Source of the DNA: an uncultured Candidatus Rokubacteria bacterium
Lineage (GTDB): Bacteria; Methylomirabilota; Methylomirabilia; Rokubacteriales; CSP1-6
NCBI GenBank assembly: GCA_963771355.1
Contig: CAVYTA010000006.1
Location: forward strand, 1,536,001 to 1,600,000
Length of the DNA: 64,000 bases
Direction: 5' to 3'
The notes below the pieces were generated by a model. It was not told the DNA's origin. It saw nothing but the letters and a program-made list of their open reading frames with translations, and searched no databases. The position numbers and the translations under genes are program-made. Shown piece by piece: positions 17,548-35,058 of the stretch; position 1 is the first letter of the stretch; every line of letters begins with the position of its first letter.

Positions 17548-17955
17548 CTAGTCGTCGTCGCCGTCTTCACCGCGAACGGGGCCCCCCACCGGCTGGAGGC
17601 GCTTCGACCGCTCGAGGCGGTCCTGGCAGCGCACGCACGTGGTGACCTCGGGCATGGCCCGGAGCCGCGCCGGCGCGATGGGCTCCTCGCACTCCTGGCA
17701 GGTTCCATAGTCGCCGCCGCGCAGCCGCTCGAGCGCCTCGGCGAGCTTGTTGGCCCGCTCGACGAGCATGCTCCGGGTGGCGAAGCTCATCTCACGATCC
17801 TCGTTCAGCTGGATCAGATCCACCTCATCGGCCAAGGGGGTGTTGTCCCCGAACACGCCGGGGAACTCCTCGAACACCACCGCTCCGCCCATCCGGCGAA
17901 TCCGGCTGACGGTTGAACTCAGCTCGGTCTCAAGCCGCTTCTTGATCTCGTCCAT
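17548..17955 (-). CDS. DksA/TraR family C4 zinc-finger protein
   Basis: DEVD at the coiled-coil tip; ALERL..GDYGTCQECEEPIAPARLRAMPEVTTCVRCQ. AGGAGG RBS. Confidence 0.9.
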   Translation of the reverse strand: MDEIKKRLETELSSTVSRIRRMGGAVVFEEFPGVFGDNTPLADEVDLIQLNEDREMSFATRSMLVERANKLAEALERLRGGDYGTCQECEEPIAPARLRAMPEVTTCVRCQDRLERSKRLQPVGGPVRGEDGDDD

Positions 17956-18188: not shown

Positions 18189-19685
18189 TCAGGGGCGGCG
18201 AAGTCGCTCCAGGGCCGTGAGGAGTTCCCCTAAGGTGGAGATACCCCGGCGCCCAAGGAGTTCGAGCAGCCGGACAAGCACCTCAGCTGTGGCCAGAGCG
18301 TCGCCCAAAGCCGAATGGCGGGCAAGTATGGTCACACCCAGCCGTTCACTCACCGCCTCGAGTGAGTGCGACACGTCCGAGCCATGGACGAGAATCGAGA
18401 TCAGCCGAGTATCGAGCACGGTGCGGTTCCCGGCCAGACGAGGCAGTCCGAGTCGTAGAGCCTCCGCCTCGAGAAACTCCAGGTCGAAAACGATCTCGTG
18501 GCCGACCAGCGGCGCCTCCCCGGCGTACCGGAGGAACGCCGGCAGGACCTCCTCCATCGGCGGGGCGGCGGCCACCATCGCGTCGGTGATGCCGTGGAAG
18601 CGCGTGCTGGCAGCCGGGATCGGGCGCCCTGGATGGATCAGCGCGTCGAAAGCTTCGTGCGCCCGCACCGTTCCCCCGCCCACTCTCACGGCCGCCAGCG
18701 AAACCACTCGATGGCCCTCCTGGAGGCGAAGCCCGGTGGTCTCGGTATCGAGCACCACGAACGTGAGGTCGGCGAGCCGTCGGGCGCGGCCGGCGGCGCC
18801 GGCTTCCCGCGCGACGGTATCGAAGTAAGAGAAGTCATACAGTAGCGGGCGGGGAGGTCCGGGCTCGCTGGCTCCGACCCCCGAGGTCAGTCCCGCCGCC
18901 GGCCGCCGGGGCGCGTCCACGCCCGGCACGGTTGCGGGCGCTCCCTCTGCGGAGCGCGCGGGATCGCGAATGGCAAGGATCAGCCCGATCACGTGCGCAT
19001 CGGCATTCGTGAGCGGCGTGACCCCCGCCTCGAGCAGTCCTTTCCCGCGCCGCTCCAGCCCGACCCGGCCGGACACGGGCTCGCCGCGCTTCACCCGCTC
19101 GAGCAGACCGGCCACGGGCTCGGGCTCGACGAGGTCGAGGAGCGAGCGGCCCAGCAAGGGCGCGCTCCCGACGAGTAGCTCGCTGGCCACGCGATTGGCC
19201 AGGGTGATCCGCCCATCGCCCGTCACCGCCACCACGCCCTCGTCCAGGTCGGCGAGTATGGCGGCGAGTCGGGCCCGCTCCTCCGCGAAGGCGCGCGTCG
19301 CCCGGAGCCCCTCGAGGTCCAGTGCACGCCGCGCTGCGGTCAACCGGTCGCCGAGGCGGTTGACCTCCTCCGCGAGGGCTTCCAGCTCATCCCCGGTCTG
19401 GAGCGCGATGCGGTGGTCCGGATTCACGGTGGCGATGAGCTCGGCTCCCCGCCGAATAGCGTGGAGATGACCTACGAGCGCACGGCCGAGCCCATGGGCG
19501 ACGAGAGCCAGGTAGCCCATTAGCGTCAATCCACCGATCGCGAGCGTGAGGGCCAGCGTAACAGGGTCCGCGAGCACCCCACGCCGGTAGAGAAGGTACA
19601 GCGCGGCGGCCGCGACCACGGTGGGCAGGGCGAAAAGCGCGAGGACGCCCGCGAGCAGCCGCCTTTCGAGGCTTCGACGTGCCAT
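18189..19685 (-). CDS. Membrane-anchored HAMP-PAS-DEDDh (DnaQ-like) 3'-5' exonuclease
   Basis: Two N-terminal TM helices; HAMP-like GDELEALAEEVNRL; PAS-like LDEGVVAVTGDGRITLAN; ExoI DTETTG, ExoII GHEIVFD, ExoIII HSALGDA. Confidence 0.85.
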   Translation of the reverse strand: MARRSLERRLLAGVLALFALPTVVAAAALYLLYRRGVLADPVTLALTLAIGGLTLMGYLALVAHGLGRALVGHLHAIRRGAELIATVNPDHRIALQTGDELEALAEEVNRLGDRLTAARRALDLEGLRATRAFAEERARLAAILADLDEGVVAVTGDGRITLANRVASELLVGSAPLLGRSLLDLVEPEPVAGLLERVKRGEPVSGRVGLERRGKGLLEAGVTPLTNADAHVIGLILAIRDPARSAEGAPATVPGVDAPRRPAAGLTSGVGASEPGPPRPLLYDFSYFDTVAREAGAAGRARRLADLTFVVLDTETTGLRLQEGHRVVSLAAVRVGGGTVRAHEAFDALIHPGRPIPAASTRFHGITDAMVAAAPPMEEVLPAFLRYAGEAPLVGHEIVFDLEFLEAEALRLGLPRLAGNRTVLDTRLISILVHGSDVSHSLEAVSERLGVTILARHSALGDALATAEVLVRLLELLGRRGISTLGELLTALERLRRP

Positions 19686-19693
19686 GGGACGAT

Positions 19694-21190
19694 TCAGCTC
19701 ACGAGGTTGGTCTGGAAGCGGTCCTCGAGCATCCGCTGCAGCCAGCCCACCGTCTTGAAGGCCTCCTTGAGAAGGAGACGGTCCGACTTGCCGAGCCGGC
19801 CGGGATCGATCCAGTTGTCCGGGTCGAGCCCGGCGTCGAGCTGCTCGAGCTGATGTCCAAGCCGCAGCCGCGAGACGACCTCGAAGGCCTGGCGGAGATC
19901 ACGGGCCTCCTCGACCCTGATGGCTCCGCGAGCCTCCGCGGCGGCCAGGCGGTCGAGTGTGCTGGTCTCGGGAACGCCGAGCGAAAGCGCGTAAACCCGA
20001 AGAGCCTGGGTGACGGGGAAGATGGCGCCCGCCTTGAGGTCCAGCCGGCCCCGGAGCGGGCCGGACCGCGACACGGCGAAGCCTCCGAGCAGACCCAGCG
20101 GCGGCCGGCGCTCCAGCGCGTCCCGCGCCATGAAGCTGAGGAACAAGTGCGCGGAGGGGGCGCGTTCGCACAACCAGCTCCGCAGAGTCCCCGCGAGCGC
20201 CTCGTCGCCGGCCAAGGGGCGGAGATCGCAGTACAGCGAGGCAAAGAGGAGGCGCTTGGGCTCCGGCGTGTCGATCCAGTCGGCGAACTCCCCGAGCCAG
20301 GAAGACAGGGGGCGACGCCAGCGGGGATTCGACGCCATGAACCCGCCGGGACAGGGCGGAAAACCGAGGCGGGCCAAGGCGGCTTCCGCCGCCTCAGCGA
20401 ATCGCGTGAAATACGCTTCCGTGTTCCCCACGCGGTCGGGCGCCGGATCCGCATAGACGAGTCCATTGTCCTGGTCGGTTCGGAGCGTCTGCTCGCGCCG
20501 TCCCTCGCTCCCCACCGCCAGCCACGCGTACGCCACCGGCGGACGGCCGACCCCCTCCCGTTCCAGCGCCGCCTCGACGAGCGCGAGCGTGCGGCGAACG
20601 AGACGGTCGTTGAGCTCGGCGATGATACGACCGATTTCCACGGCGCCCACGCTCACGCCCGCGAGCCAGCCCACCACACGCTGGAGCCGCGGCGCCGTTG
20701 CGATCAGCGCATCCAGCGACTCGGCGGTGTCGATTTCGCGCGCGAGACCCACCGGGTGCGCGGCCTGGAGGCCCAGCAGGTCGTGACTCGACACGACGCC
20801 GATGAGTCGCCCTTCCTCGACCACTCCCAGGTGATGGAAGCCGCCACGCGTCATCTCAAGCAAGGCCTCGAAAGCCCGGACCGCCGGGCCGACGGACCGC
20901 AGCGGCGAGGACATGATCCCCGCCACCGGAGTGTCCCCGGGTAGCCTCCGGGCGACCACACGACTCCGCAGATCGCGGTCCGTCACGATGCCGAGGGGGG
21001 CTCCGGTGGCATCGGCGATCACGACGGAGCCGATGTCACGCTCCGTCATGAGGCGGGCTGCCTCGGAGACGGGCGTCGCCGGGGCGCAGGTCACGGGCGG
21101 CCCCTTGATGAGGTCGCGGGCGCTCCGCACGAACAGGGGCAGGTCGCCCCGCGCGCCGCCCAGACTGTCGAGCCCGGGCGGGCCGCTCAC
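19694..21190 (-). CDS. CBS-pair + DUF294 putative nucleotidyltransferase (GlnD/GlnE-like) with DUF294_C
   Basis: CBS motifs (GIVTDRDLR, IMSSP); NTase motif GSEGRREQTLRTDQDNGL; CPGGFMASNPRW; DLKAGAIFP. Confidence 0.88.
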   Translation of the reverse strand: MSGPPGLDSLGGARGDLPLFVRSARDLIKGPPVTCAPATPVSEAARLMTERDIGSVVIADATGAPLGIVTDRDLRSRVVARRLPGDTPVAGIMSSPLRSVGPAVRAFEALLEMTRGGFHHLGVVEEGRLIGVVSSHDLLGLQAAHPVGLAREIDTAESLDALIATAPRLQRVVGWLAGVSVGAVEIGRIIAELNDRLVRRTLALVEAALEREGVGRPPVAYAWLAVGSEGRREQTLRTDQDNGLVYADPAPDRVGNTEAYFTRFAEAAEAALARLGFPPCPGGFMASNPRWRRPLSSWLGEFADWIDTPEPKRLLFASLYCDLRPLAGDEALAGTLRSWLCERAPSAHLFLSFMARDALERRPPLGLLGGFAVSRSGPLRGRLDLKAGAIFPVTQALRVYALSLGVPETSTLDRLAAAEARGAIRVEEARDLRQAFEVVSRLRLGHQLEQLDAGLDPDNWIDPGRLGKSDRLLLKEAFKTVGWLQRMLEDRFQTNLVS

Positions 21191-21627
21191 ACGGTAGGCG
21201 GACCGCTCCGCCCGCGAAGCCGCGCGGCGAGCGCGGAGAGCACCAGGTAGGTCGCGCCGGAGAGGTTGGCCAGCGCCACGAGCGCGAGGGCCGTGATGAG
21301 GAGCACCATGATCCGACCGACCAGGTGGTCGGCGCCCGCTTCGGGAGGCAGCTGCGGCCGCACGGCGAAGAAGGGGGTCAGGACGGCGACGGGGGCCAGC
21401 ACCACGGTAAGGACCAGCGCAAAGGCGGCGCGTCCCGTGCGCTCGAGAGGCGACTTCGTGAGACTTCCGCGCCGCTCGATCCGCACCCAGAGGGCGACCG
21501 TCACCCCAAAGGCCAGGACGAGGCTCGCGAGAAATGCGCCCTGAGACAGCCAGCGCAATGCCGCCGCTCCATAGGCGCCCACGAAGAGCCCGACGCCGAG
21601 CGCATTGATCGCAGCCAGGACCAGCAC
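21187..21627 (-). CDS. Hypothetical membrane protein (about 4 TM)
   Basis: Hydrophobic ORF in the operon; its stop overlaps the start of the DUF294 gene. Confidence 0.6.
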   Translation of the reverse strand: MLVLAAINALGVGLFVGAYGAAALRWLSQGAFLASLVLAFGVTVALWVRIERRGSLTKSPLERTGRAAFALVLTVVLAPVAVLTPFFAVRPQLPPEAGADHLVGRIMVLLITALALVALANLSGATYLVLSALAARLRGRSGPPTV

Positions 21628-21636
21628 GTCTCTAGA

Positions 21637-21927
21637 CTAGCCCAGGTTCGGGCCGCCCCAGCTCCCGAGGAAAAGCCGCATCCCGAACCAGATAACAGCG
21701 TAGAGCCCCAGTGCCAGCCAGCGGAGCCGGGTCTCGGATGTTCCATTCGGCACCAGCTTCCGGATGGGCCAGATCAGGGGGCGGGTCACCACCCCGAAGA
21801 ACCAGAGGAGCCGGCTCTCGGGCTTCCGGCTGAACCGTGCCACCAGGATGTGAAGGACCAGATAGACGCTTGCCGTGTAGGCGAGAAACCAGAGAAGCAC
21901 GGACAGCCGATAGATGAGGTCGCTCAT
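21637..21927 (-). CDS. Small membrane protein (about 3 TM; weakly YggT-like)
   Basis: MSDLIYRLSVLLWFLAY...FFGVVTRPLIWPIRKLVP; the TxPL..PIR pattern resembles YggT. Confidence 0.6.
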   Translation of the reverse strand: MSDLIYRLSVLLWFLAYTASVYLVLHILVARFSRKPESRLLWFFGVVTRPLIWPIRKLVPNGTSETRLRWLALGLYAVIWFGMRLFLGSWGGPNLG

Positions 21928-21982
21928 GGGGCACGCGGGGGCGGAGAGGCAAGCCTCCCCGCCCCCGCTCACTTCCCGACGC

Positions 21983-23905
21983 TCAGTGCTGGCCCAGCCC
22001 GATGCCCTGCGCGGACCGCGCGGTGGCCTGGCCGGACTTCGGATAGCGCACCGACACCACGAGGTCCTGGACGGACTTCGGCGGAGGCGCGGTGAGCAGC
22101 GAGACGATCCAGATGGTGAGGAATCCCGCCGGCAGCCCGAAGATGGCCGACGCGATGGTGAGCGTCCCGTACCACTGCAGGCCGTAGAAGCGGCTGCCGA
22201 TCATGTAAAAGGTGGTCACGCCGAGACCGACGATCATGCCGGCGACGGCGCCCGCCTTGTTCGCCCGCTTCCACCAGATGCCCATGACCAGCGCCGGGAA
22301 GAACGAGGCTCCGGCGAGGCTGAACGCCCAGGCCACCAGCTCGACGATGAGAGAGAGCCGGAACGTGGCCACCCACGCCGAGATCAGCGCGGTGACGATG
22401 AGGAGCACCTTGGTGATGGTGAGCCGCTTGGTGAGGGACGCCGAGGGGTCGATGACGTTGTAGTAGAGGTCGTGCGAGATGGCATTGGCGATGGTGAGCA
22501 GCAGGCCGTCCGCGGTGCTGAGGGCCGCGGCGAGGCCCCCCGCCATGACCAGCCCGGTGATCACGAAGGGCAGTCCGGCGATCTCCGGTGTGGCGAGCAC
22601 GACGAAGTCCGTGCTCTTCACGACGAAGTCCGCCCACTGCACGATGCCGTCTCCGTTCTTGTCCACGACGTCGAAGAGGCCGGCGGGCTTCCAGAGGGTC
22701 ACCCACCGCGGCAGCTCGGCGACCTTGCTACCGACGAGCTTGGCGTAGATCGCGAACCGCGCGAAGGCCGCGTAGGCCGGCGCGGTGAAGTAGAGCAAGA
22801 AGATGAAGAACAGGGACCACGCCACCGAGGTGCGCGCCTGGCGCACCGAAGGCGTGGTGTAGTAGCGCGTGAGGATGTGTGGCAACCCCGCCGTTCCGAC
22901 CATGAGGCAGAAGGTCAGGGCGAGGAAGTTCCACATCCCGATGCCGGTGGGCACAGTCAGGTAGTAGCCGAACTTGGCATCCTCGCTCGGTGCAGGCGGC
23001 CGGGCCTGGGCGAGCGCCGCCGCCCGTACCCCCGTCAGCCTGGCCCGATCCGACTCCGGCAGCGCGGGATCCTTGAGCTTCTCGGTGGCCTCGTCGGCGT
23101 CCTTCTTCCAGAGCGCCCGCGTCTCCTTTTCCTTCGCGTCCTTGGTGATCTCGATGGCGCTGGTGTTGTTTCGCTGGAGCAGCTGGCCGTAGGTGAGCTC
23201 GGGAATCGGGATGGAGAAGATCTGCCACGAGAGGTACACCACCGGCACCAGGTAAGAGATGATGAGGATGATGTACTGGGCCACCTGGGTCCAGGTCACC
23301 GAGCGCATCCCGCCCAGCACGGAGCAGAACAGCACGCCGAGGAGCCCCACGAAGACGCCGACATTGAAGTCGAGCCCGATGAATCGGGAGACGATCAGGC
23401 CCACCCCCGTCACCTGCGCGATCAGGTAGGTGAAGGAGCAGGCGACGGCGGCGATGACGCCGATGATCCGCGCGGCGGTGCCGCCGTAGCGGGCGCCAAG
23501 GAAGTCGGGAATGGTATAGGCACCGAACTGGCGGAGATAGGGGCCGAGGAAGACCGCGAGAAGCAGGTATCCGCCCGTCCAGCCCATGACGTAGGCGAGG
23601 CCGGCAAAGCCCTGGGCGGACAGCGCGCCACCCATCGAGATGAAGGACGCCGCGGACATCCAGTCCGAGCCCGTGGCCATGCCGTTATAGAAGGCGGGCA
23701 CGCCGCGGCCGGCGACGTAGTACTGGTCGGGATTGGAGGTCCGGGTCACGATGCCGATGAACACGTAGATGGCGAGCGAGAGCGCCATGAAGATCCAGCC
23801 GATCCACCGGTTGGGAAGCCCGAAGAAGATCTCGCCGATGCCGATGAGGATGGTGACGGCAAGAAACGCGACGGTATAGATGCCGAAGAGCTTGTCCAGG
23901 CTCAT
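21983..23905 (-). CDS. actP: Sodium:solute symporter, ActP-like (VC2705-type) acetate/monocarboxylate permease
   Basis: YYVAGR, NGMATGSDWMSAASF, GTAGLPHILTRYYT, GGLAAALSTADGLLL, FFPALVMGIWW. Lies near acs and directly after DUF4212. Confidence 0.85.
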   Translation of the reverse strand: MSLDKLFGIYTVAFLAVTILIGIGEIFFGLPNRWIGWIFMALSLAIYVFIGIVTRTSNPDQYYVAGRGVPAFYNGMATGSDWMSAASFISMGGALSAQGFAGLAYVMGWTGGYLLLAVFLGPYLRQFGAYTIPDFLGARYGGTAARIIGVIAAVACSFTYLIAQVTGVGLIVSRFIGLDFNVGVFVGLLGVLFCSVLGGMRSVTWTQVAQYIILIISYLVPVVYLSWQIFSIPIPELTYGQLLQRNNTSAIEITKDAKEKETRALWKKDADEATEKLKDPALPESDRARLTGVRAAALAQARPPAPSEDAKFGYYLTVPTGIGMWNFLALTFCLMVGTAGLPHILTRYYTTPSVRQARTSVAWSLFFIFLLYFTAPAYAAFARFAIYAKLVGSKVAELPRWVTLWKPAGLFDVVDKNGDGIVQWADFVVKSTDFVVLATPEIAGLPFVITGLVMAGGLAAALSTADGLLLTIANAISHDLYYNVIDPSASLTKRLTITKVLLIVTALISAWVATFRLSLIVELVAWAFSLAGASFFPALVMGIWWKRANKAGAVAGMIVGLGVTTFYMIGSRFYGLQWYGTLTIASAIFGLPAGFLTIWIVSLLTAPPPKSVQDLVVSVRYPKSGQATARSAQGIGLGQH

Positions 23906-23908
23906 GGT

Positions 23909-24178
23909 CTAGGCCTCCTCCTGGATGCCATACTCTTGGTCCTTGGCGTTCATGAGCTTGGCGTAGACGGCGATCTCGATCACGAAGATGGCCAGCGAGC
24001 CCTGGGCCGCCATGTAGTAACCCATGGGGAATCCGAGCACGGTGAACTGGTTGAGCCAGCTCGCCATGATGCCCGAGATGATGTAGGTGACGACGAACCA
24101 GATGACGAGCAGGATCGTCGTCAGCCGGACGTTGTAACTCCAGTATTCCTCTTTCTCTCGTTCGGTCAGATCGGCCAT
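23909..24178 (-). CDS. DUF4212 small membrane partner of the solute symporter
   Basis: YWSYNVRL..ILLVIWFVV...GFPMGYYMAAQGS. GGAGGG RBS; directly upstream of the SSS gene. Confidence 0.88.
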   Translation of the reverse strand: MADLTEREKEEYWSYNVRLTTILLVIWFVVTYIISGIMASWLNQFTVLGFPMGYYMAAQGSLAIFVIEIAVYAKLMNAKDQEYGIQEEA

Positions 24179-24291: not shown

Positions 24292-24576
24292 TCAGACCGC
24301 GCGTGGGTCCGAGGACGATCGACCATCCAGTCCTCGGTCGAGCGAGAAGATCGCCCAGCCCGGCTCGGTGCCATCCCCATCTTCCGGTCGGGCTCCACCC
24401 GACCAGATGATGGCAGGCTTGGCAAGCGGCCATGGGCCTCGCCGCGCGTCGACCCGGGCGCGCACGCCTTCCGCGGATGAACCCGCGTCGAAGGTGAACG
24501 CGCCACCGACGAACGGAGTGCCGAAGTCCACCGAAACGAACACGAAGAGCCAGAAGGCGAGCCGACGCGCTCTCAT
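24292..24576 (-). CDS. Hypothetical protein, first ORF after the sigma54 promoter (3' end possibly frameshifted; alternative stop 24261)
   Basis: MRARRLAFWLFVFVSVDFGTPFVGGAFTFD has a signal-like N-terminus; the ATG lies just downstream of the -12 element. Confidence 0.45.
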   Translation of the reverse strand: MRARRLAFWLFVFVSVDFGTPFVGGAFTFDAGSSAEGVRARVDARRGPWPLAKPAIIWSGGARPEDGDGTEPGWAIFSLDRGLDGRSSSDPRAV

Positions 24577-24590
24577 CCGATGTCGAGCAT

Positions 24591-24608
24591 TAGCACGGAG
24601 TGTGCCAG
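24591..24608 (-). promoter_or_regulatory. Sigma54 (-24/-12) promoter of the DUF4212-actP operon
   Basis: Minus strand CTGGCACACTCCGTGCTA: TGGCAC, with GG-N10-GC spacing. Confidence 0.75.
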
Positions 24609-26093: not shown

Positions 26094-28046
26094 CTACTCT
26101 TCCTCGCCGTACTGGTCCTTGAGGCGCGCCACCACGGTGGGGTCGGCCAGCGTGGTGGTATCGCCCAGCGCCTTGCCCTCCGCGATGTCGCGGAGCAGCC
26201 GCCGCATGATCTTGCCGGAGCGGGTCTTGGGGAGATCGGCGGCGAAGATGAGGTCGTCGGGACGGGCGAGCGCCCCGATCTTCTTGCTCACATGCCCCTT
26301 GAGCTCGTCCATGAGCTCCTTGGAGCCCTGATGGCCGTCCTTGACGGTGACGAAGGCGGCAATCGCCTGCCCCTTGATCTCGTGCGGTCGCCCGATCACC
26401 GCCGCCTCCGCGACCTTGGGATGATCCACCAGGGCGGACTCCACCTCCATGGTGGAGACGCGGTGGCCCGAGACGTTCATGACGTCGTCCACCCGGCCGA
26501 GGAGCCAGAAGTAGCCGTCCTCATCCTGCTTGGCTCCGTCGCCGGTGAAGTAGATGCCCGGGTACTTGCTCCAGTACTGCGCCTGGAAGCGCTGCGGGTC
26601 GCGGTAGATGCCGCGCAGCATCCCCGGCCACGGCTTGGTGAGGACGAGATAGCCGGCCTTGGCCGGCTCGCCCTTGTCATTGACCACCTGAGCCTCGATA
26701 CCGGGGAAGGCCTTGGTGGCGGAGCCGGGCTTGAGCACGGTGATCCCGGGGAGCGGGGTGATCATGATGTGGCCCGTCTCGGTTTGCCACCACGTGTCCA
26801 CCACCGGGCAGCGCCCGCCGCCGATGACCTTCCAGTACCAGACCCAGGCTTCGGGATTGATGGGCTCACCTACCGATCCCAGGAGCCGGAGGGTCGAGAG
26901 GTCACAGCGGTTCGGGTACTGGTCGCCCCAGCGCATGAAGGTGCGAATGGCGGTGGGCGCGGTATAGCAGATGGTGATGCCGTGGCGCTCGATGACGCGC
27001 CAGAAGCGGTCCTTGTCGGGGAAGTCCGGGGTGCCCTCGTACATCACGGTGGTGGCGCCGTTGGCGAGGGGCCCGTAGACGACGTAGGAGTGCCCGGTCA
27101 CCCAGCCGATGTCGGCGGTGCACCAGTACACGTCCGTGTCCTTCAGGTCGAAGACCCAGTTGGTGGTCGCATACACGCCGGTGAGGTAGCCGCCGGTGGT
27201 GTGCTGGATGCCCTTGGGCTTGCCCGTCGAGCCCGAGGTGTAGAGGAGATACAGCATGTCCTCCGCGTCCATCTTCTCCGGCGGGCAATGGGCGGGGGCG
27301 TCCTTCACGAAGTCCGTCCACCAGATGTCCCGCCCCGAGACCATCGGAACGTCCTGCCCGGTGCGCTTGAGCACCACCACCGTCCTGACGTCGGGGCACT
27401 CCTTGAGCGCGGCGTCCACGTTGAGCTTCAGGGGCACGATGCCGCCCCGGCGGTAGCCGCCGTCGGCGGTGATCAACACCGTGGATTCTGCGTCGTGAAT
27501 GCGGTCGCGGACCGCGTCGGGAGCAAAGCCGCCGAAGATGACGCTGTGGGGCGCCCCGATGCGCGTGCACGCGAGCATGGCGATGGCGGCCTCGGGCACC
27601 ATGGGCATGTAGATGGTGACGCGATCGCCCCGCTTGACCCCATGCTGCTTGAGGGCCGCGGCGAAGCGATTCACCTCGCGGTAGAGGTCCCAGTAGGTCA
27701 GGGTGCGGGTGTCGCCGGGCTCCCCCTCCCAGATGAGGGCGGCCTTGGTGCGGCGGGCGGTGGTGATGTGCCGGTCCAGGCAGTTGTACGAGACATTGAG
27801 CTTGCCGCCGAGGAACCACTTGGCGTTGGGCGCCTTCCACGCCAGCGTCTTCTTCCACGGCGTGAACCAGTGGAGCTGCTTCGCCCAGCCCTCCCAGAAC
27901 TTCAGGGGGTTCTTCGCCGCCTCCTTGTAGATGGAGGGACGGTTGATGTTCGCCTTCTTCGCGAAGTCCTTGGGGGGCGGGAACTTCCGCCGCTCCTTGA
28001 GAAGGGCCTCGATCGGGGTCGCGCCGCCAGCGGGCTTGCTCGCCAT
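26094..28046 (-). CDS. acs: Acetyl-CoA synthetase (AMP-forming)
   Basis: [51 protein letters not shown]. Confidence 0.96.
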
Positions 28047-28139: not shown

Positions 28140-29540
28140 TCAGCCGGAGCGCGGTGCGTCGCCGCCCTCCGCGGGCGCGATACGCCGCAACCCGTAGCGC
28201 ACCATCTTGTCGGAGAAGTTCTTGGGATCCATGTCGGCGTGCTTGGCGGCGGTGGTGAGCTTTCCCCCGTGGGCGTCGAGGAGACCCGCCACGTAGGCGC
28301 GCTCGAACTCCTCCACCACTCGCGCCTTGGCGTCGCGAAACGGCAGCGAGAGGTCTACCGCCGCGGGCGCGCCGCTGGGGGCCAGGAAGCGCTCCACCCC
28401 CGCAAGCACGTCGCCCTTGGCCACGATCACCGCGCGCTCGATCACGTTCTCCAGCTCGCGGACATTGCCCGGCCACGGGTAGGCGAGGAGGGCCTGCCGG
28501 CTCTCCGGCGCGATGCCGCGCAGGCTCTTCCGGCAGCGTCGGTTGGCGGACTCCAGGAAATGCTCGGCCAGCACCGGGATGTCCTCCGGCCGCTCGCGCA
28601 GCGGCGGCACCAGGATGGGCATCACGGCGAGGCGGTAGAACAGGTCGCGACGGAACGTCCCGCGCTCGGCCTCCGCCTGGAGGTCCTTGTTGGTGGTGGC
28701 GATGAAGCGGACGTCCACCTCCACCGGCCGGTCCGAGCCCACCGAGGTGACCTTCTTCTCCTCGATGGCGCGCAGGAGCTTGGACTGCAGATGCAGCGGC
28801 ATCTCGCCGATCTCGTCGAGCAGGAGGGTGCCACCGTTGGCCATCTGAAAGAGGCCGCGCCGGTGCTCGCTGGCGCCGGTGAAGGCGCCCTTCCGGAAGC
28901 CGAAGAGCTCCGACTCGAACAGCTCCGCCGGAATGGCCGCACAGTTCACCGCCACGAAGGGCCGCTCGCGCCGTGCGCCCGAGAAGTGTATGGAGCGCGC
29001 GAGCAGCTCCTTCCCCACCCCGGTCTCGCCGTGGATGAGGACGGTGGTGTCGAGGTCCACCACCGATTGCACGAGCTCGAACACCGCCTGCATGGACGCC
29101 CCCCGGGCGACGATGTTCTTGAAGGTGAAGCGCTCCTGGTTGCGGCGGATGGTGCGACGGCTCGCGGACTTGAGCTCCTGGAACTCGATGGCGCGGCGGA
29201 TGACGAGGAGCAGCTCGGCGACCTCGAACGGCTTGACCAGGTAATCCTCGGCCCCCAGCCGCATCGCCTCCACCGCCGACTCGATGGTGCCGTAGGCGGT
29301 CATCACCACCACCGCGAGGTCGGCATGGTCGGCCTTCACGCGCCGGACCAGCTCTACCCCGTCCATGCCGGGCAGCCGCTTGTCGGTGAGGACCACGTCC
29401 ACGTCCTCCACCTTGAGAGCGTCGAGCGCGTCTTCCGCACTCGGCACCGGGAGCACGTCATAGCCGGCCAGCTCCAGGGTCCGGTGAAGCGGCCGCAGGA
29501 ACACGTCGTCGTCTTCCACCAGCAGGATCTTCCGCTTCAT
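28140..29540 (-). CDS. Sigma54-dependent response regulator (REC-AAA+-HTH, NtrC family)
   Basis: MKRKILLVEDD; GETGVGKE; ESELFGFRKGAFTGA; LLLDEIGE; WPGNVRELEN. ATGA overlap with the kinase. Confidence 0.93.
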   Translation of the reverse strand: MKRKILLVEDDDVFLRPLHRTLELAGYDVLPVPSAEDALDALKVEDVDVVLTDKRLPGMDGVELVRRVKADHADLAVVVMTAYGTIESAVEAMRLGAEDYLVKPFEVAELLLVIRRAIEFQELKSASRRTIRRNQERFTFKNIVARGASMQAVFELVQSVVDLDTTVLIHGETGVGKELLARSIHFSGARRERPFVAVNCAAIPAELFESELFGFRKGAFTGASEHRRGLFQMANGGTLLLDEIGEMPLHLQSKLLRAIEEKKVTSVGSDRPVEVDVRFIATTNKDLQAEAERGTFRRDLFYRLAVMPILVPPLRERPEDIPVLAEHFLESANRRCRKSLRGIAPESRQALLAYPWPGNVRELENVIERAVIVAKGDVLAGVERFLAPSGAPAAVDLSLPFRDAKARVVEEFERAYVAGLLDAHGGKLTTAAKHADMDPKNFSDKMVRYGLRRIAPAEGGDAPRSG

Positions 29541-32500
29541 GACTCCCCTCCCGTGGCGATGGGATGGACCGCCGCCGCCGGCAGCGCGATGCGGACGCGA
29601 GTCCCCCCTCCCGGCGTGCTTTCGACCGTGATGTCGCCGCCGTGCAGGTCGACGATCTTCTTGACGATGGACATGCCGAGCCCGGTGCCCGACGGCTTCG
29701 TGGTGAAGAAGGGCAGGAAGATCTTCTCGCGGTCCTCGGCGCCGATGCCCACGCCGGTGTCGGACACCTCCACCACCACGCGGTCGTGATCGGCGCGCAG
29801 GTCCACCACCACCCGGCCGCCGCCCGCGCGCGGATCGATGGCCTCCAGCGCATTCTGCAGCACGTTGGCGAAGACCTGGCGAAGCTTCTGCCCGTCGCCG
29901 ACCGCCACCAGGTCCCGATCGGTTCGTCCATACGTGACCGTGATGTCGCGCGGGCGCCCGGTGGCGGCGGCCGACTCCACCACCGGATCGAGGATGCGCA
30001 TCACCTCGTACTCCGCCCGCTCCAGCCGCGTGTCGCGCGTGTAGTCGAGGAGGCTGTTGATGATCCCCTCGATCTCCCCGATGCCCGCCAGGATGGCGCG
30101 CGCCATCTCCTGCGACAAGGGCCGCGCGTCGAGATCGTCGGACGAGAGCAGGTTGGTCGCCATCTTGATCCCGCCCAGCGGGTTGCGGATCTCGTGGGCC
30201 ACACCCGCCGCCATCTCGCCGAGCGACGCCAGCTTCTCTCGCTGAATGAGCCGGCGCTGGGTCTCCACCTGCTCGGTGAGGTCGCGGAGCACGCCCACCG
30301 TGCCCATGAGCTGCCCGCGCGCGTCGAAGATGCAGCGGACGGCGAGGTGAGCGGGAAACGTCTGCCCCGCGCCGGTCACCCCGGCCACCTGCCCGCTCCA
30401 CCCCGTCCCGCCCACCACCGCTCGCGCGATGGCGGGGGCGGCGCGGCGGCGGTCGTCGGGGCCGAGCAGATCGGCGTAGCCGAGACCGGTGAGCCCGCGA
30501 TCGCCCAGGCCGAGCAGTCGCTGGCCGGCGGGATTCATGGTAACGAGCCGCCCGTTGACGTCGGCGGTGAAGATGCAGTCGTCCACGCTCTGGACCACAG
30601 AGGCGAGCAGGCGCTCGCCGCGCCGCACCTCCTCCTCGCTGACCTTGAGCGACTCCTGCATCTGGTGGAAGGAGGCCACCAGCTGCTGCGCCTCGTCCTT
30701 GGAGATGGTGAACCGGTCCTCCACGATCATGCGCGCGGCGGCGGCGCCCAGGGGGGCGGCGAGCAGGCGCTCGAACCGGATGCGCAGCTCGAGCAACTCC
30801 GGCACCGAGAGATCGGTGGGGGACTTGCCCCCGAACAGCTCCCGCGTGATGGCGCGCGCCTCTTCCTCGCCGACGAAATGGTGAACCAGCCGCTCGATCT
30901 CGGTGGGCGACAGGATGGCGGGCGCGCCCGCGCCGCCCTTGTCCTCCCCGCGCGCGCCCACGAAGGCGGCGGCCTGGGCCCGGTCGTCCCCGCGCTGCTC
31001 GGTCAGGAGAGAGACCAGGACGAAGAGCCCGGCATTGAGGAAGAGCGACCAGAACACGCCGTGGCTCAGCGGATCGAGCCCCTCCAGGCCGAGAAAGGCG
31101 GTGGGCCGGAACAGGCCGAGGCCGAAGGGGCCGTCGACGAGGAAGGTCGCCGTCAGCACCCCCTCCCTCTCCAGCGCGGGGATGATGAGGGTGTAGAGCC
31201 ACATGAAGAAGCCCGCCGAGATCCCTGCGAAGGCGCCCTGGCGGTTGCCACGCCGCCAGTACAGCCCGAGGAGGATGGCGGGCGCGCACTGGCTCACCGC
31301 CACGAACGACAGTAGTCCCATCTCCACCAGGAGGAACTGGCCGCGCTCCAGCCGCGCCCACATCAGACCCAGCGCCACCACTCCCAGCATCGCCAGCCGC
31401 GTGTAGAAGAGGGTGATCCAGTAGATGTCCTCCATGCTGCGGCGGCGCAGGAGCATGGGCAGGATCACGTCGTTGGTGATCATCTTGGAGAGCGCGAGCG
31501 AATCGACCACGATCATGGCGGTGGCGGCGGAAAATCCGCCGAGGAACACCACGATCGACATGAGCCGGTGGTCGAAGTGCAACGGCAGCCGGAGGATGAA
31601 GCTGTCCGCCTGCGCGCCCGCCTCCGGGAACACGGAGAGCCCGGCCAGCGCGATGGGCAGGACGAAGAGGTTGATGAGGAGGAGGTAGAGCGGAAACGAC
31701 CACGACAGGGTCCGCACGTCCCGCTCCTGCGCGTTCTGCACCACCAGGACGTGGAACTGGCGGGGCAGGAACATCACCGCCATCATCGAGATCACGAGCA
31801 TCGCCGCCCAGCGCGAATAGGAGGCGGTGGGGGGCTGGTCCAGGGTGAGGAGCCGCGACCAGCCGGGGTGCGCGGTGGCGCGGCCGAAGAGATCACCGAA
31901 GCCGTCGAAGAGCCCCCAGGTGACGTACACCCCCACGCAGAGAAAGGCCACCAGCTTGACCACGGACTCCACCGCCACCGCGGTCATGAGACCGGTCTGG
32001 TGCTTGGTGAAGTCGAGGTTGCGCGCCCCGAACAGGATGCCGAACAGGGCGAGGGTGCCGGCCACGAGCACGGTGGGGTCGAAGATGTCGAGCACGGACG
32101 CATCCCGCATGATCATGGTGAAGGACACCGATACCGCCTTCAGCTGCAGCGCGATGTAGGGAATCATCCCGCCCACCACCAGCAGCGCCACCAGCATCCC
32201 CAGGGGCGCCGACTTGCCGTAGCGGCTCGAGATGAAGTCCGAGATGGACGTGATGCGCTGCTCCTTGGCCACCCGCACCAGCTTGCGCAGCAGCACCGGC
32301 CACAGGAGCGCGATGCACGCCGGCCCGAGGTAGATGGTGAGGAACTCCAGCCCCCGGTTGGCCGCCAGCCCCACGCTGCCGTAGAAGGTCCACGCGGTGC
32401 AGTACACCGAGGCGGCGAGCACGTAGGTGAGCGTGCGCAGCCGGCCGCGGGCCATCCAGCGCGACCCCGTCTCGGCGAGGGTAGCGACCACGAAGAGGAA

Positions 32501-32551
32501 GACCAGGTAGGCCAGGACGACCCCGAGGAGGCTGCCCTGGGAGAGCCACAT
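29537..32551 (-). CDS. CrbS/CbrA-like sensor: SLC5 transporter - STAC - PAS - histidine kinase
   Basis: SVYCTAWTFYGSVG, SISDFISSRYGKS, PYIALQLKA, LPRQFHV, GGFSAAT; STAC-like RFERLLAAPLGAAAAR; H-box AHEIRNPL; PFFTTK..GTGLG. Confidence 0.9.
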   Translation of the reverse strand: MWLSQGSLLGVVLAYLVFLFVVATLAETGSRWMARGRLRTLTYVLAASVYCTAWTFYGSVGLAANRGLEFLTIYLGPACIALLWPVLLRKLVRVAKEQRITSISDFISSRYGKSAPLGMLVALLVVGGMIPYIALQLKAVSVSFTMIMRDASVLDIFDPTVLVAGTLALFGILFGARNLDFTKHQTGLMTAVAVESVVKLVAFLCVGVYVTWGLFDGFGDLFGRATAHPGWSRLLTLDQPPTASYSRWAAMLVISMMAVMFLPRQFHVLVVQNAQERDVRTLSWSFPLYLLLINLFVLPIALAGLSVFPEAGAQADSFILRLPLHFDHRLMSIVVFLGGFSAATAMIVVDSLALSKMITNDVILPMLLRRRSMEDIYWITLFYTRLAMLGVVALGLMWARLERGQFLLVEMGLLSFVAVSQCAPAILLGLYWRRGNRQGAFAGISAGFFMWLYTLIIPALEREGVLTATFLVDGPFGLGLFRPTAFLGLEGLDPLSHGVFWSLFLNAGLFVLVSLLTEQRGDDRAQAAAFVGARGEDKGGAGAPAILSPTEIERLVHHFVGEEEARAITRELFGGKSPTDLSVPELLELRIRFERLLAAPLGAAAARMIVEDRFTISKDEAQQLVASFHQMQESLKVSEEEVRRGERLLASVVQSVDDCIFTADVNGRLVTMNPAGQRLLGLGDRGLTGLGYADLLGPDDRRRAAPAIARAVVGGTGWSGQVAGVTGAGQTFPAHLAVRCIFDARGQLMGTVGVLRDLTEQVETQRRLIQREKLASLGEMAAGVAHEIRNPLGGIKMATNLLSSDDLDARPLSQEMARAILAGIGEIEGIINSLLDYTRDTRLERAEYEVMRILDPVVESAAATGRPRDITVTYGRTDRDLVAVGDGQKLRQVFANVLQNALEAIDPRAGGGRVVVDLRADHDRVVVEVSDTGVGIGAEDREKIFLPFFTTKPSGTGLGMSIVKKIVDLHGGDITVESTPGGGTRVRIALPAAAVHPIATGGES

Positions 32552-32754
32552 CAGGCCGCGTCCTCCGGTCCCCGCGGCCGCCGGGCTTCCAGCACGAGGA
32601 GGATCACGATGGCCGCCCACACCCCGAAGAGGTAGAGAACCATCACCGGGATGCCGAGGAAGAGGACGGGGCGATTGGCGATGGACAGGAGCGGCCAGAC
32701 CAGGCAGGCCCCGAAGAGCAGGAAGCTGGCGACCAGGCGCTCCATGGCCCTCAT
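32551..32754 (-). CDS. Small 2-TM protein upstream of the SLC5 kinase
   Basis: WPLLSIANRPVLFLGIPVMVLYLFGVWAAIV; stop overlaps the kinase start; TATAAT at 32767-32772. Confidence 0.75.
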   Translation of the reverse strand: MRAMERLVASFLLFGACLVWPLLSIANRPVLFLGIPVMVLYLFGVWAAIVILLVLEARRPRGPEDAA

Positions 32755-33213: not shown

Positions 33214-35058
33214 ATGATCGACGTGCAGACGGCGGATCGGGAGCTCCAGACCTATATCCGCCCGCAGACCTTCCCGGTGGCGATCCGGATGCTCAAGCCC
33301 GGCGAGCCCATTCCGGACCGCGCGCGCCGTCCCGCGCGGGACTTCAAGAAGCTCAGCATGTCGTGCCAGGTCATCGACATGTCGCGGCGCTACGGCTGGA
33401 TGATCGCGCTCACGCGCGAGGACCACATCTGCTCGCTCGGCATCACCGCCATCGGCTTCGACCGGCCCCTGCCCATCTACAACGTGGGCACGCTGTGCGA
33501 GGGCATGTACACGGAGACGAAGGAAGCGGGCGCGCGCTCCGAGGCCGCCATCGACAAGTTCGCGCCCGGGGAGTACGAGACCCTGCTGGTGGCGCCGCTG
33601 GACCGCGCCACCTTCGAGCCGCATCTGGTCTGCGTCTATGCCAATCCCGCCCAGGTGATGCGGCTCACCCAGGCCGCGCTGTGGAAGCGTGGCGGCCGTC
33701 TTACCTCCTCCTTCGAGGGGCGCGCGGTCTGCGCCGACATCATCGTCACCACCATGAAGACCGGGGAGGCGCAGGTCATCCTCCCTTGCTCCGGGGACCG
33801 CATCTTCGGGCAGACGCAGGATCACGAGATGGCCTTCGCCATCCCGTGGGCGCGGATGGAGGAGATGGTGGAGGGCCTGCGGGGCACTCACAACGGCGGC
33901 ATCCGCTATCCCATCACCCAGTTCATGGAGTACGAGGCCAAGCTGCCGCCGCGCTACATGGAGGTGAACAAGCTCTGGGACGCCGAGAAGGGCAAGAGCG
34001 CGCTCACCAACCGGGACCGCGTGGTGGCCGCCTACAAGCGCTCGTTCTCCGACCGCGTGCCCGTCTATCCCATCGTGGCGTCGTTCGCGGGCACGCTGGA
34101 CGGGCTGAGCATCGAGGAGTACTGCACCAACCCCGTCAAGGCCATCAACGCGATGATGAACTACTACGAGCGCTATCAGCCCGACGTGGTGCTCGCCTAC
34201 AACGACCTCGCCAAGGAGGCGGAGGCCTTCGGCTGCGGCGTGAAGTACTCCGACTACGTGGTGCCCTCCATCGAGACCCACATCCTCGAGGACAAGGCCT
34301 CCCTGGCCCGGCTGGTGATGCCCGATCCCTACCGGACGGGGCGGCTGCCCGGTTTCCTCGAGCAGTGCGAGGCGCTCGTCAAGGCCAAGCCGCCGGCGGC
34401 CACCGGGGCGGTGGCGGTGGGCCCGTGGACCATCGCCATGCTGCTGCGGAACCCGGAGATGATGCTGCTCGACACCTTCGAGGATCCGCAGTTCATTCAC
34501 GACCTCATGCGGATCGCCACCGACTTCTCGAAGGTGTGGGGCGATGCCATCGTGAAGACCGGGATCGGACTGTCCTACTCCGAGCCCACCGCCTCCATCA
34601 GCTTGATCTCGCCCGACAACTACCGCGAGTTCATCGCGCCCTATCACAAGGAGCTGGTGGACCACTTCAAGGCCAAGAAGGTGGGAGTGACCACCCACAT
34701 CTGCGGCACCACCTATCCGATCTACGAAGACCTGATCCAGTGCGGGTTCACCACGGTGTCGTTCGACCTCGATCAGCAGGCCGATCCCGCGCTGCACGTG
34801 GACCAGCTCACGCGCTTCATGGAGGTGGTCAAGGGACGCGCGGTGGCCATCGGGAACGTGGATGCCACCAAGTTCGAGAAGACGACGCGGGAGGAGATGG
34901 AAGCCGACGTGCGGCGCTGCATCGATGCCGCCGCCCGGCACTCCGGCTTCATCCTGTCGACCTCGTGCGAGATCCCCCCGCGGTCCAATCCCGAGATCGT
35001 GAAGTGGTTCATGGACGCGGCCCACGACTACGGACGCTACGAGCGCGTGCTGGGCTGA
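33214..35058 (+). CDS. Fusion of DUF169 and a uroporphyrinogen-decarboxylase-fold MtaA/CmuA-type methylcobamide methyltransferase
   Basis: N-terminal ~250 aa: PVAIRM, SCQVI, HICSLG, YANPAQVMRL, AVCAD, LPCSGDR (DUF169-like). C-terminal part: DRVPVYP, EAEAFG, GPWT, EPTAS..LISP, THICG (HxC), GNVD, ILSTSCEI. Confidence 0.8.
   Translation: MIDVQTADRELQTYIRPQTFPVAIRMLKPGEPIPDRARRPARDFKKLSMSCQVIDMSRRYGWMIALTREDHICSLGITAIGFDRPLPIYNVGTLCEGMYTETKEAGARSEAAIDKFAPGEYETLLVAPLDRATFEPHLVCVYANPAQVMRLTQAALWKRGGRLTSSFEGRAVCADIIVTTMKTGEAQVILPCSGDRIFGQTQDHEMAFAIPWARMEEMVEGLRGTHNGGIRYPITQFMEYEAKLPPRYMEVNKLWDAEKGKSALTNRDRVVAAYKRSFSDRVPVYPIVASFAGTLDGLSIEEYCTNPVKAINAMMNYYERYQPDVVLAYNDLAKEAEAFGCGVKYSDYVVPSIETHILEDKASLARLVMPDPYRTGRLPGFLEQCEALVKAKPPAATGAVAVGPWTIAMLLRNPEMMLLDTFEDPQFIHDLMRIATDFSKVWGDAIVKTGIGLSYSEPTASISLISPDNYREFIAPYHKELVDHFKAKKVGVTTHICGTTYPIYEDLIQCGFTTVSFDLDQQADPALHVDQLTRFMEVVKGRAVAIGNVDATKFEKTTREEMEADVRRCIDAAARHSGFILSTSCEIPPRSNPEIVKWFMDAAHDYGRYERVLG

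Follow-up and report, generated by a model that had tools for sequence, protein, structure and literature searches.

The nucleotidyltransferase and its membrane-anchored nuclease

We analyzed a stretch of 64,000 nucleotides (nt), hereafter the window, from the genome of an uncultured Candidatus Rokubacteria bacterium, and focused on two adjacent genes on its minus strand that lie behind the genes of a sodium/solute symporter. The first (19694..21190) encodes a nucleotidyltransferase (NTase) of 498 amino acids (aa) with the architecture CBS-CBS-DUF294-DUF294_C (COG2905-type, without the cNMP domain), and its GTG start codon overlaps the preceding gene's stop codon. The second (18189..19685) encodes a 498-aa exonuclease in which two transmembrane (TM) helices, a HAMP-like segment, and a PAS domain precede a DEDDh domain, and which is the sole RNase_T-family match of its genome. 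Both open reading frames (ORFs) are intact and are separated by exactly the 8 nt (19686-19693) given in the first-pass annotation of this DNA. A module of an NTase and a nuclease is already known in Pseudomonas, where its chemistry is unexplained, and the membrane-anchored form is a new variant of it. A DNA contig from a separate run spans 18890-20917 with 3 substitutions and 0 gaps, the junction between the NTase and the gene upstream is covered by a gap-free independent DNA contig, and the indels listed from independent DNA contigs are all upstream of the DUF4212 gene that starts the symporter genes. Matching sequences come from soil and rhizosphere metagenomes, and the nearest homologues that carry a source label indicate Methylomirabilota. 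Two metatranscriptome runs of a single study provided contigs over parts of both genes and their junction; transcription, strand, and level cannot be read from them, and they were not used as evidence.

The domains of the NTase all pass the Pfam cut-offs. They are a CBS pair (residues about 25-141; 20768..21118), predicted to sense adenine nucleotides, the DUF294 catalytic domain (20255..20689; E 7e-46), and the helical DUF294_C domain (19715..20146; E 6e-44), which has the conserved K386, R398, and R414. The catalytic domain carries G227-S228, D239, and D241, with a third Asp, D322, just beyond it. The GlnE-type signature (GS/G, DxD, third Asp) is complete, as claimed earlier for a GlnD/GlnE-like motif, and the five residues are jointly intact in this protein and in 116 of 118 aligned homologues. 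Pfam found no cNMP-binding domain in the NTase, and the open frame upstream was translated as well: a 645-codon frame before the gene, considered as a hidden cNMP domain, is an off-frame of a 146-aa membrane gene. Around 31 of 150 representatives of the family have likewise 420-540 aa, and the NTase without cNMP domain appears to be a common shorter variant. The family is large, with 1,672 clusters (50% identity) at E<=1e-30 against the NTase part. Some loci (L042, L049, L064, L084, L085, L089, L091, L097) have two DUF294 NTase genes and a single shared nuclease gene.

The AlphaFold model of the NTase (pLDDT 95) best matches the adenylylating domain of GlnE (Z 27.4, rmsd 2.9, 313 aligned), its removing domain (Z 27.2, rmsd 3.2, 328 aligned), and DrrA (Z 25.3, rmsd 4.0, 299 aligned), and Foldseek returned an identical top three. 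All three act on protein-NMP. The fourth structural match, at Z 18.4, is a CBS match. The motif region aligns weakly with the GlnD of the same genome (E 0.0016), and searches with Pfam and family HMMs gave neither the HD and ACT domains of GlnD, nor the tandem NT domains of GlnE, nor any family HMM above cut-off. A sequence search found no solved structure of a DUF294 protein. Judged by its model and its domains, the NTase is a GlnE-fold enzyme, yet neither GlnD nor GlnE. It shares with them the fold, the helical domain (Z 27 against GlnE), and the pairing of a writer with a remover, sometimes in one chain. It differs by its low identity (11-15%), by a CBS pair instead of ACT domains, by a DEDDh or PHP partner instead of an HD or second NT domain, and by genomic ties to carbon uptake instead of nitrogen, with GlnD encoded separately in the same genome. 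We infer that the NTase works like GlnD/GlnE.

The nuclease begins with two predicted membrane helices (19500..19646; hydrophobic residues 14-32 and 44-62). Since the loop between them has only about 7 residues in the model, there is no extracytoplasmic sensing domain. They are followed by a HAMP-like segment (19338..19481) that Pfam matches only weakly here (E 0.02) and by a Pfam PAS domain (residues 139-241; 18963..19271), so that the architecture proposed at first holds, with the HAMP as its least certain element. The DEDDh domain (18276..18758; RNase_T at residues 310-470 in Pfam) has all five catalytic residues, D313, E315, D401, H457, and D462, which are invariant in the 65 short homologues. 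Of 127 module-linked domains, 122 have all five intact. Two marks set the family nuclease domains apart from generic ones: position 329 is Ser in 101 of 127 family domains, as it is here, and Glu in 26 of 31 generic members, and there is a C-terminal Thr-Leu extension (T484-L485). Net charge is -3.3 in the family and -7.7 in generic domains, which is uninformative on substrate. In two loci an extra stand-alone nuclease is found next to the sensor-fused one (L185:12590-13183, L193:8105-8728), and the first of these copies has lost its catalytic residues.

One might have expected an ordinary DNA proofreading or repair nuclease with an incidental neighborhood. Its best sequence and fold matches are indeed the exonucleases PolC and DnaQ, and the single RNase_T match in the genome fits such a role. 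With the proofreader model TIGR01406 the protein scores 93 vs 223 bits, and it passes only the generic TIGR00573 domain. We surveyed 81 genomes of Methylomirabilota, partly incomplete and including kin that are not independent: 66 have no RNase_T/DnaQ-family match and 15 have one, which suggests that the phylum may proofread by another domain. True DUF294 (E<1e-45) is present in 9 of the 81 genomes, in 8 of them with the nuclease next door. In a quick, unrooted tree of 182 nuclease domains, the 127 that are NTase-linked, symporter-linked, sensor-fused, or NTase-fused all fall on one side of a branch (SH-aLRT 88), together with 14 unlabelled rows mostly from short contigs, and the 41 generic domains are outside. 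In Pseudomonas putida, the nuclease PP_0353 is described as having no role in DNA utilization (PMC9927547). Relative to DnaQ/epsilon, the PolC exonuclease domain, and RNase T, the fold and the five catalytic residues are the same, and the differences are the membrane anchor, the missing polymerase, Ser329, the Thr-Leu extension, and the patchy distribution in the phylum. On this evidence, the nuclease is not the replicative proofreader. A plain proofreader, which the first-pass annotation had set against its own proposal, is very unlikely, and this reading is largely refuted.

Conservation of the pair and probable decay of its kinase-like part

For the gene neighborhoods, a survey of which the first-pass annotation had suggested, we used the 78 best GTDB loci of the NTase (from the best 80 of 616 confirmed), which are ranked by similarity and thus a non-random sample. 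The nuclease lies within 8 kb of the NTase in 62 of them. In the other 16 genomes no nuclease adjoins the NTase; 14 of them carry a family-type copy elsewhere, which scores at least 197 bits in 12 and is weaker or cut, and beside NTase or symporter genes, in 2. The remaining 2 have generic nucleases only. Within the same 8 kb we found the small symporter subunit in 32/78 and acetyl-CoA synthetase (Acs) in 33/78 loci. In the reverse direction, among loci of at least 7.5 kb, the NTase is present near 20 of 29 family-type nucleases and near none of 18 of the generic DnaQ/PolC type; the nuclease profile was trained on NTase-linked domains, none from the tested loci. Finally, 4 metagenome loci encode one-chain Exo-CBS-NTase fusions.

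One genome (G058, 100% complete) has no family nuclease. Its NTase (L038:6954-10685) is a single PHP-Cache-PAS-PAS-CBS-DUF294 membrane chain encoded behind DUF485-symporter genes, and the motifs of its PHP phosphoesterase are intact. We found 4 further PHP-NTase chains (P0263, P0273-P0275), and this architecture is probably the cleanest object for biochemistry. Near the 16 nuclease-less loci, a Pfam scan of 67 proteins in all, drawn from the 128 called neighbors and including the L038 fusion, gave no consistent phosphoesterase as another eraser. As the NTase nearly always comes with a phosphodiesterase, of two unrelated folds, its product should therefore be a phosphodiester that needs removal. 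This partnership is silent on whether the product sits on a protein.

The same genomic pattern would arise if the product of the NTase were a short linear or unusual nucleotide (a nucleotidylated metabolite, NpnN, or a dinucleotide) that has the transporter or a regulator as its target and is degraded by the DEDDh or PHP partner. Co-occurrence, fusion, the PHP swap, and the genetic asymmetry seen in Pseudomonas (see below) fit this equally, loci without symporter are common, and no conserved target Tyr was found in the symporter tail. There is also a precedent, since a CBASS-associated DEDDh Exo is inactive on ordinary DNA and RNA and cleaves the 2'-5' linear dinucleotide of the neighboring NTase (10.1101/2025.03.04.641389). 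Like it, the nuclease studied here belongs to a specialized DEDDh clade and may destroy the product of an adjacent Pol-beta-type NTase. The context here is metabolic rather than defensive, however, and no effector-like neighbor gene was seen by Pfam (no PADLOC search was made). Further points against a nucleotide signal are that the nearest folds are, by a wide margin, protein NMPylases, that no cGAS/CD-NTase-like chain is among the 50 fold matches listed for the model (weak evidence, being an absence), that no dedicated receptor gene for a nucleotide was seen in the operon, and that a diffusible messenger would have less need for a membrane tether. We regard such a signal as the main rival of the reading favored below, possible if rather improbable.

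A third explanation is that the pair edits the 3' ends of RNA (mRNA, sRNA, or tRNA) and so steers the expression of the symporter, not its activity. The nuclease has an RNase_T-family domain, and related ideas have been put forward as speculation. Price et al. (10.1101/072470) found DUF4212 cofit with a nearby gene labelled COG2905 and RNase T, an ambiguous partner that they speculated to be necessary for symporter expression, and Henriquez et al. (PMC9927547) proposed mRNA degradation. The model of the NTase is, however, closest to GlnE and DrrA, not to CCA-adding enzymes or poly(A) polymerases, Pfam gives no RNA-binding domain in either protein, and the replacement by PHP and the kinase-style membrane anchoring fit poorly. 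Hence, RNA editing is unlikely.

The kinase-style anchor can be traced in relatives of the nuclease. Among the 120 homologues listed, 48 have at least 690 aa (long homologues), and their segment between the PAS and nuclease domains can be aligned with the kinase of the window itself (probability 93.8, E 1.8e-7). HisKA is matched weakly by 34 of the 48, the phospho-His is lost in 46, and HAMP is matched in 46 at E<=0.1. The nuclease of the window lacks exactly this pseudokinase core of about 217 residues, missing at the junction 18927..18947 and present, as a His-less DHp/CA region, in relatives of 720-730 aa; it has neither a DHp domain with His nor a CA ATP-binding domain. The earlier description of an exonuclease in the place of a kinase is thus true and incomplete, since the chassis is that of a decayed kinase whose DHp/CA core was deleted. 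In the tree, the nuclease domain falls in a clade (support 98) that mixes long, short, and stand-alone forms. This is consistent with an N-terminal part that is a decayed kinase shortened by stepwise loss, the direction of which would be from long to short.

The long forms also tend to have a receiver. We examined 41 sensor-fused loci, from which 6 long ones were dropped because their upstream DNA was too short. A same-strand single-domain receiver adjoins 23 of 28 long forms and none of 7 short forms (4 receivers were confirmed by Pfam), a contrast to be read as a pattern and not as a statistic because 4 of the short forms are close kin. There is no receiver gene by the nuclease in this window. 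Of 21 sensor loci of at least 7.5 kb, 10 have a symporter-fused kinase nearby. The long relatives resemble the DivL-DivK system of Caulobacter in having a His-less kinase homologue and an adjacent single-domain receiver; the difference is that their output is a DEDDh domain and that in the window both pseudokinase core and receiver are gone. Given the 7-residue loop and the lack of receiver input, the N-terminus of this copy, first described as a sensor, seems to be more of a tether. This copy, from a soil lineage without cultured members, is an ordinary reduced member of the family. It is of interest for the stepwise loss of signaling input that it illustrates, with pseudokinase form, tether-only form, and bare nuclease within one clade.

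A possible writer/eraser switch on carboxylate uptake

The symporter upstream of the pair (21983..23905, minus strand) had been named actP. It passes TIGR03648 (718.8 bits vs a cut-off of 320.75) and is far under the cut-offs of the ActP models (TIGR02711, 130.9 vs 1099; PRK09395, 164.8 vs 750), so that this label is wrong. It is a VC_2705-family sodium/solute symporter, likely a monocarboxylate importer, with its DUF4212 small subunit (TIGR03647) at 23909..24178 on the same strand. The substrate class is suggested by the context and by the D-alanine/lactate phenotypes of DUF4212 systems (10.1101/072470). The C-terminal tails of both symporter types (L041-L118; window 21983-22050) have a conserved Arg...Gly-x-Gly/Ala, often ended by His, and are a candidate docking site for the regulators.

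The closest described systems are PP_0354/PP_0353 of Pseudomonas putida KT2440, Pflu5625 of P. fluorescens, and PA3233/PA3232 of P. aeruginosa, matched to this locus by published domain descriptions, not by alignment. There too, a CBS-CBS-NTase gene is followed by an RNase_T/DEDDh gene, and in both cases the pair is linked to a carboxylate symporter, Acs, and a symporter-fused kinase. The window shares these elements of the module: CBS pair, DUF294, and DUF294_C, an adjacent nuclease of the NTase-linked clade, an SSS symporter with small subunit, Acs, and the kinase. Unlike in Pseudomonas, the NTase has no cNMP domain, the nuclease carries a 2TM-HAMP-PAS part, TIGR03648/DUF4212 takes the place of ActP/YjcH, two additional membrane genes lie in between, and a sigma54 activator serves as the regulator. 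The PP_0354/PP_0353-type pair is a target of MxtR/ErdR (CrbS/R) in Pseudomonas. The module is part of the core acetate/pyruvate regulon in bacteria that are otherwise well studied.

In P. putida, growth on pyruvate was hurt by deletion of pp_0353 and not of pp_0354, and loss of actP-I or yjcH had the same effect (Henriquez et al., PMC9927547). A 2026 preprint (10.64898/2026.09.07.749794) repeated this asymmetry, suggested protein modification by PP_0354, pathway enzymes included, and termed the function unclear. Sepulveda and Lupas (PMC5715377) cite a predicted regulation by nucleotidylation. The remark in the first-pass annotation that no mechanism was known does not hold in the sense of an unnoticed system. 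In the literature searched, which excluded most subscription papers and supplements, we found no biochemical study of an NTase/nuclease pair and no account of the membrane-anchored form.

Like the first-pass annotation, we infer that the intact GlnE/DrrA-fold NTase and the membrane-anchored DEDDh phosphodiesterase form a writer/eraser pair acting on the uptake of short-chain carboxylates, a reading to which we give about even chances. It fits the fold, the co-occurrence, the fusions, the PHP replacement, and the asymmetry in Pseudomonas. Starting from the folds, motifs, operon position, and co-inheritance described above, the steps would be as follows. The CBS pair would sense ATP/ADP/AMP status and gate the NTase, which would put an NMP, probably AMP or UMP, on a hydroxyl side chain of the DUF4212/TIGR03648 symporter or of a protein needed for its activity, and uptake would fall. 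The DEDDh domain would then hydrolyze the NMP-aryl or NMP-alkyl phosphodiester and uptake would return. In most relatives, a CrbS-like kinase may gate the eraser through the single-domain receiver docking on the His-less pseudokinase. As this input is lost here, TM-HAMP-PAS would mainly hold the enzyme at the membrane, and some PAS input may persist.

A protein acceptor is favored because the NTase fold is nearest to GlnE and DrrA, and a membrane target fits because the nuclease is membrane-anchored. The sign (writer off, eraser on) is suggested by the pyruvate asymmetry, as nuclease loss, not NTase loss, mimics transporter loss. The eraser chemistry has precedents in other nucleases: pNP-TMP, an aryl-NMP ester, is a substrate of the DEDDh enzyme Orn (PMC6390093) and may mimic Tyr-O-NMP, and RNase Z is a deAMPylase (PMC12663964). 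If this tagging holds, a bacterial secondary transporter would be switched on and off covalently, DEDDh nucleases would gain a new activity, and many "DNA polymerase III epsilon" annotations would have to be changed. The system might even be a third class of reversible prokaryotic protein NMPylation, in which a CBS-gated GlnE-like enzyme AMPylates and shuts a solute symporter, and a DnaQ-type "exonuclease" is the de-NMPylase. In many phyla, the eraser would then take its input from a transceptor kinase by way of a pseudokinase-receiver pair, and in this copy only the membrane tether would be left of that wiring. We put this stronger version forward tentatively, at less than even confidence.

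Several observations weigh against a writer/eraser switch on the symporter. The GlnE removing domain is matched as well as the adding one, and the fold hence leaves the direction of the writer unfixed. Growth on propionate was worse in deletions of both PP_0353 and PP_0354 and not of actP-I (10.64898/2026.09.07.749794); a transporter-only switch does not account for this, and a second target or a different logic is needed. Growth on 20 mM acetate was indifferent to either deletion (PMC9927547), and deletion of pflu5625 had a negligible phenotype (PMC5715377). The Pseudomonas transporter is of the ActP type, not TIGR03648, and a full symporter is within 8 kb of the NTase in just 35 of the 78 loci (24 of the 44 long loci). 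We found no target residue: the C-tail Tyr of this symporter, tried as a conserved target, is Val or Leu in most DUF4212-type relatives, and none of the several Tyr invariant across the symporter alignment could be tied to the NTase. The literature searched had no biochemistry for any member of the module and no DEDDh protein-deNMPylase. Finally, a small-nucleotide signal accounts equally well for the genomics.

The propionate phenotype, shared by both deletions and absent for actP-I, would be easier to understand if the pair acted not on the importer but on a soluble carboxylate-activating enzyme (Acs or PrpE-type) or on the CrbS-like pathway. The 2026 preprint suggests modification of pathway enzymes, and Acs, already named as a target in the first-pass annotation, is a frequent neighbor (33/78, above), with nothing beyond the neighborhood to single it out. 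On the other hand, acsA is essential on acetate, whereas the nuclease deletion is normal there and resembles actP-I/yjcH on pyruvate (PMC9927547), and the membrane anchor hints at a membrane target. We give a soluble target little credence, slightly less than RNA editing.

The operon and neighboring genes

The genes are ordered on one strand as follows: a sigma54-like site, a short ORF, DUF4212, the symporter, a YggT-like gene, a 146-aa gene, the NTase, and the nuclease. The pair was said to end the DUF4212-symporter operon; strand and order agree with this, and two small membrane genes intervene (21927-21637, 21627-21187). The order DUF4212-symporter-NTase-nuclease is found in 6 of 8 fetched relatives, the others being a contig with the pair only and a PHP form. 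The intervening genes encode a 96-aa membrane protein, weakly YggT-like (21637..21927, minus strand), and a 146-aa four-TM protein (21187..21627, minus strand), present at the same place in several relatives, for which Pfam and NCBIfam give no match. Among the loci scanned, they lie between symporter and NTase only in same-phylum relatives (5 loci), and it is possible that they are accessory subunits or NTase adaptors.

The sigma54-like -24/-12 site (24592..24608, minus strand, read 24608-24592) has 11 of 13 positions of the consensus, with a chance of 0.014 per 720 nt. Comparable sites, scoring 9-11, are found in 4 of 6 relatives and none in the other 2. An operon driven by sigma54 was claimed at first; the sigma54-like site may drive the operon. 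Further upstream lie AcsA (26094..28046, minus strand) and, at 28140..32620 on the minus strand, genes for a CrbS/MxtR-like PAS histidine kinase fused to a symporter and, after it, a response regulator of the sigma54-activator type; kinase and regulator likely control the symporter operon.

Between the sigma54-like site and DUF4212, the short ORF 24292-24567 (minus strand) has no family match and has weak homologues at varying positions in L037, L039, and L040; it is probably a real small gene. An indel of a related strain falls inside it, at 24448. A strong GC-rich hairpin without U-tract lies at 21934-21968, past the stop codon of the symporter and before the YggT-like gene, in a 65-nt stretch that folds at -45 kcal/mol (without shuffle control). 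It could stabilize the mRNA of the genes before it or attenuate the regulatory genes that follow. A DksA/TraR-type zinc-finger gene (17548-17955, minus strand) comes after the nuclease in this window and in 5 of 8 relatives; it is probably transcribed separately because a 230-nt AT-richer gap precedes it. On the plus strand, a 614-aa ORF (33214-35058) seems, by impression of its translation, to combine a DUF169-type domain with a uroporphyrinogen-decarboxylase/methyltransferase-like domain.

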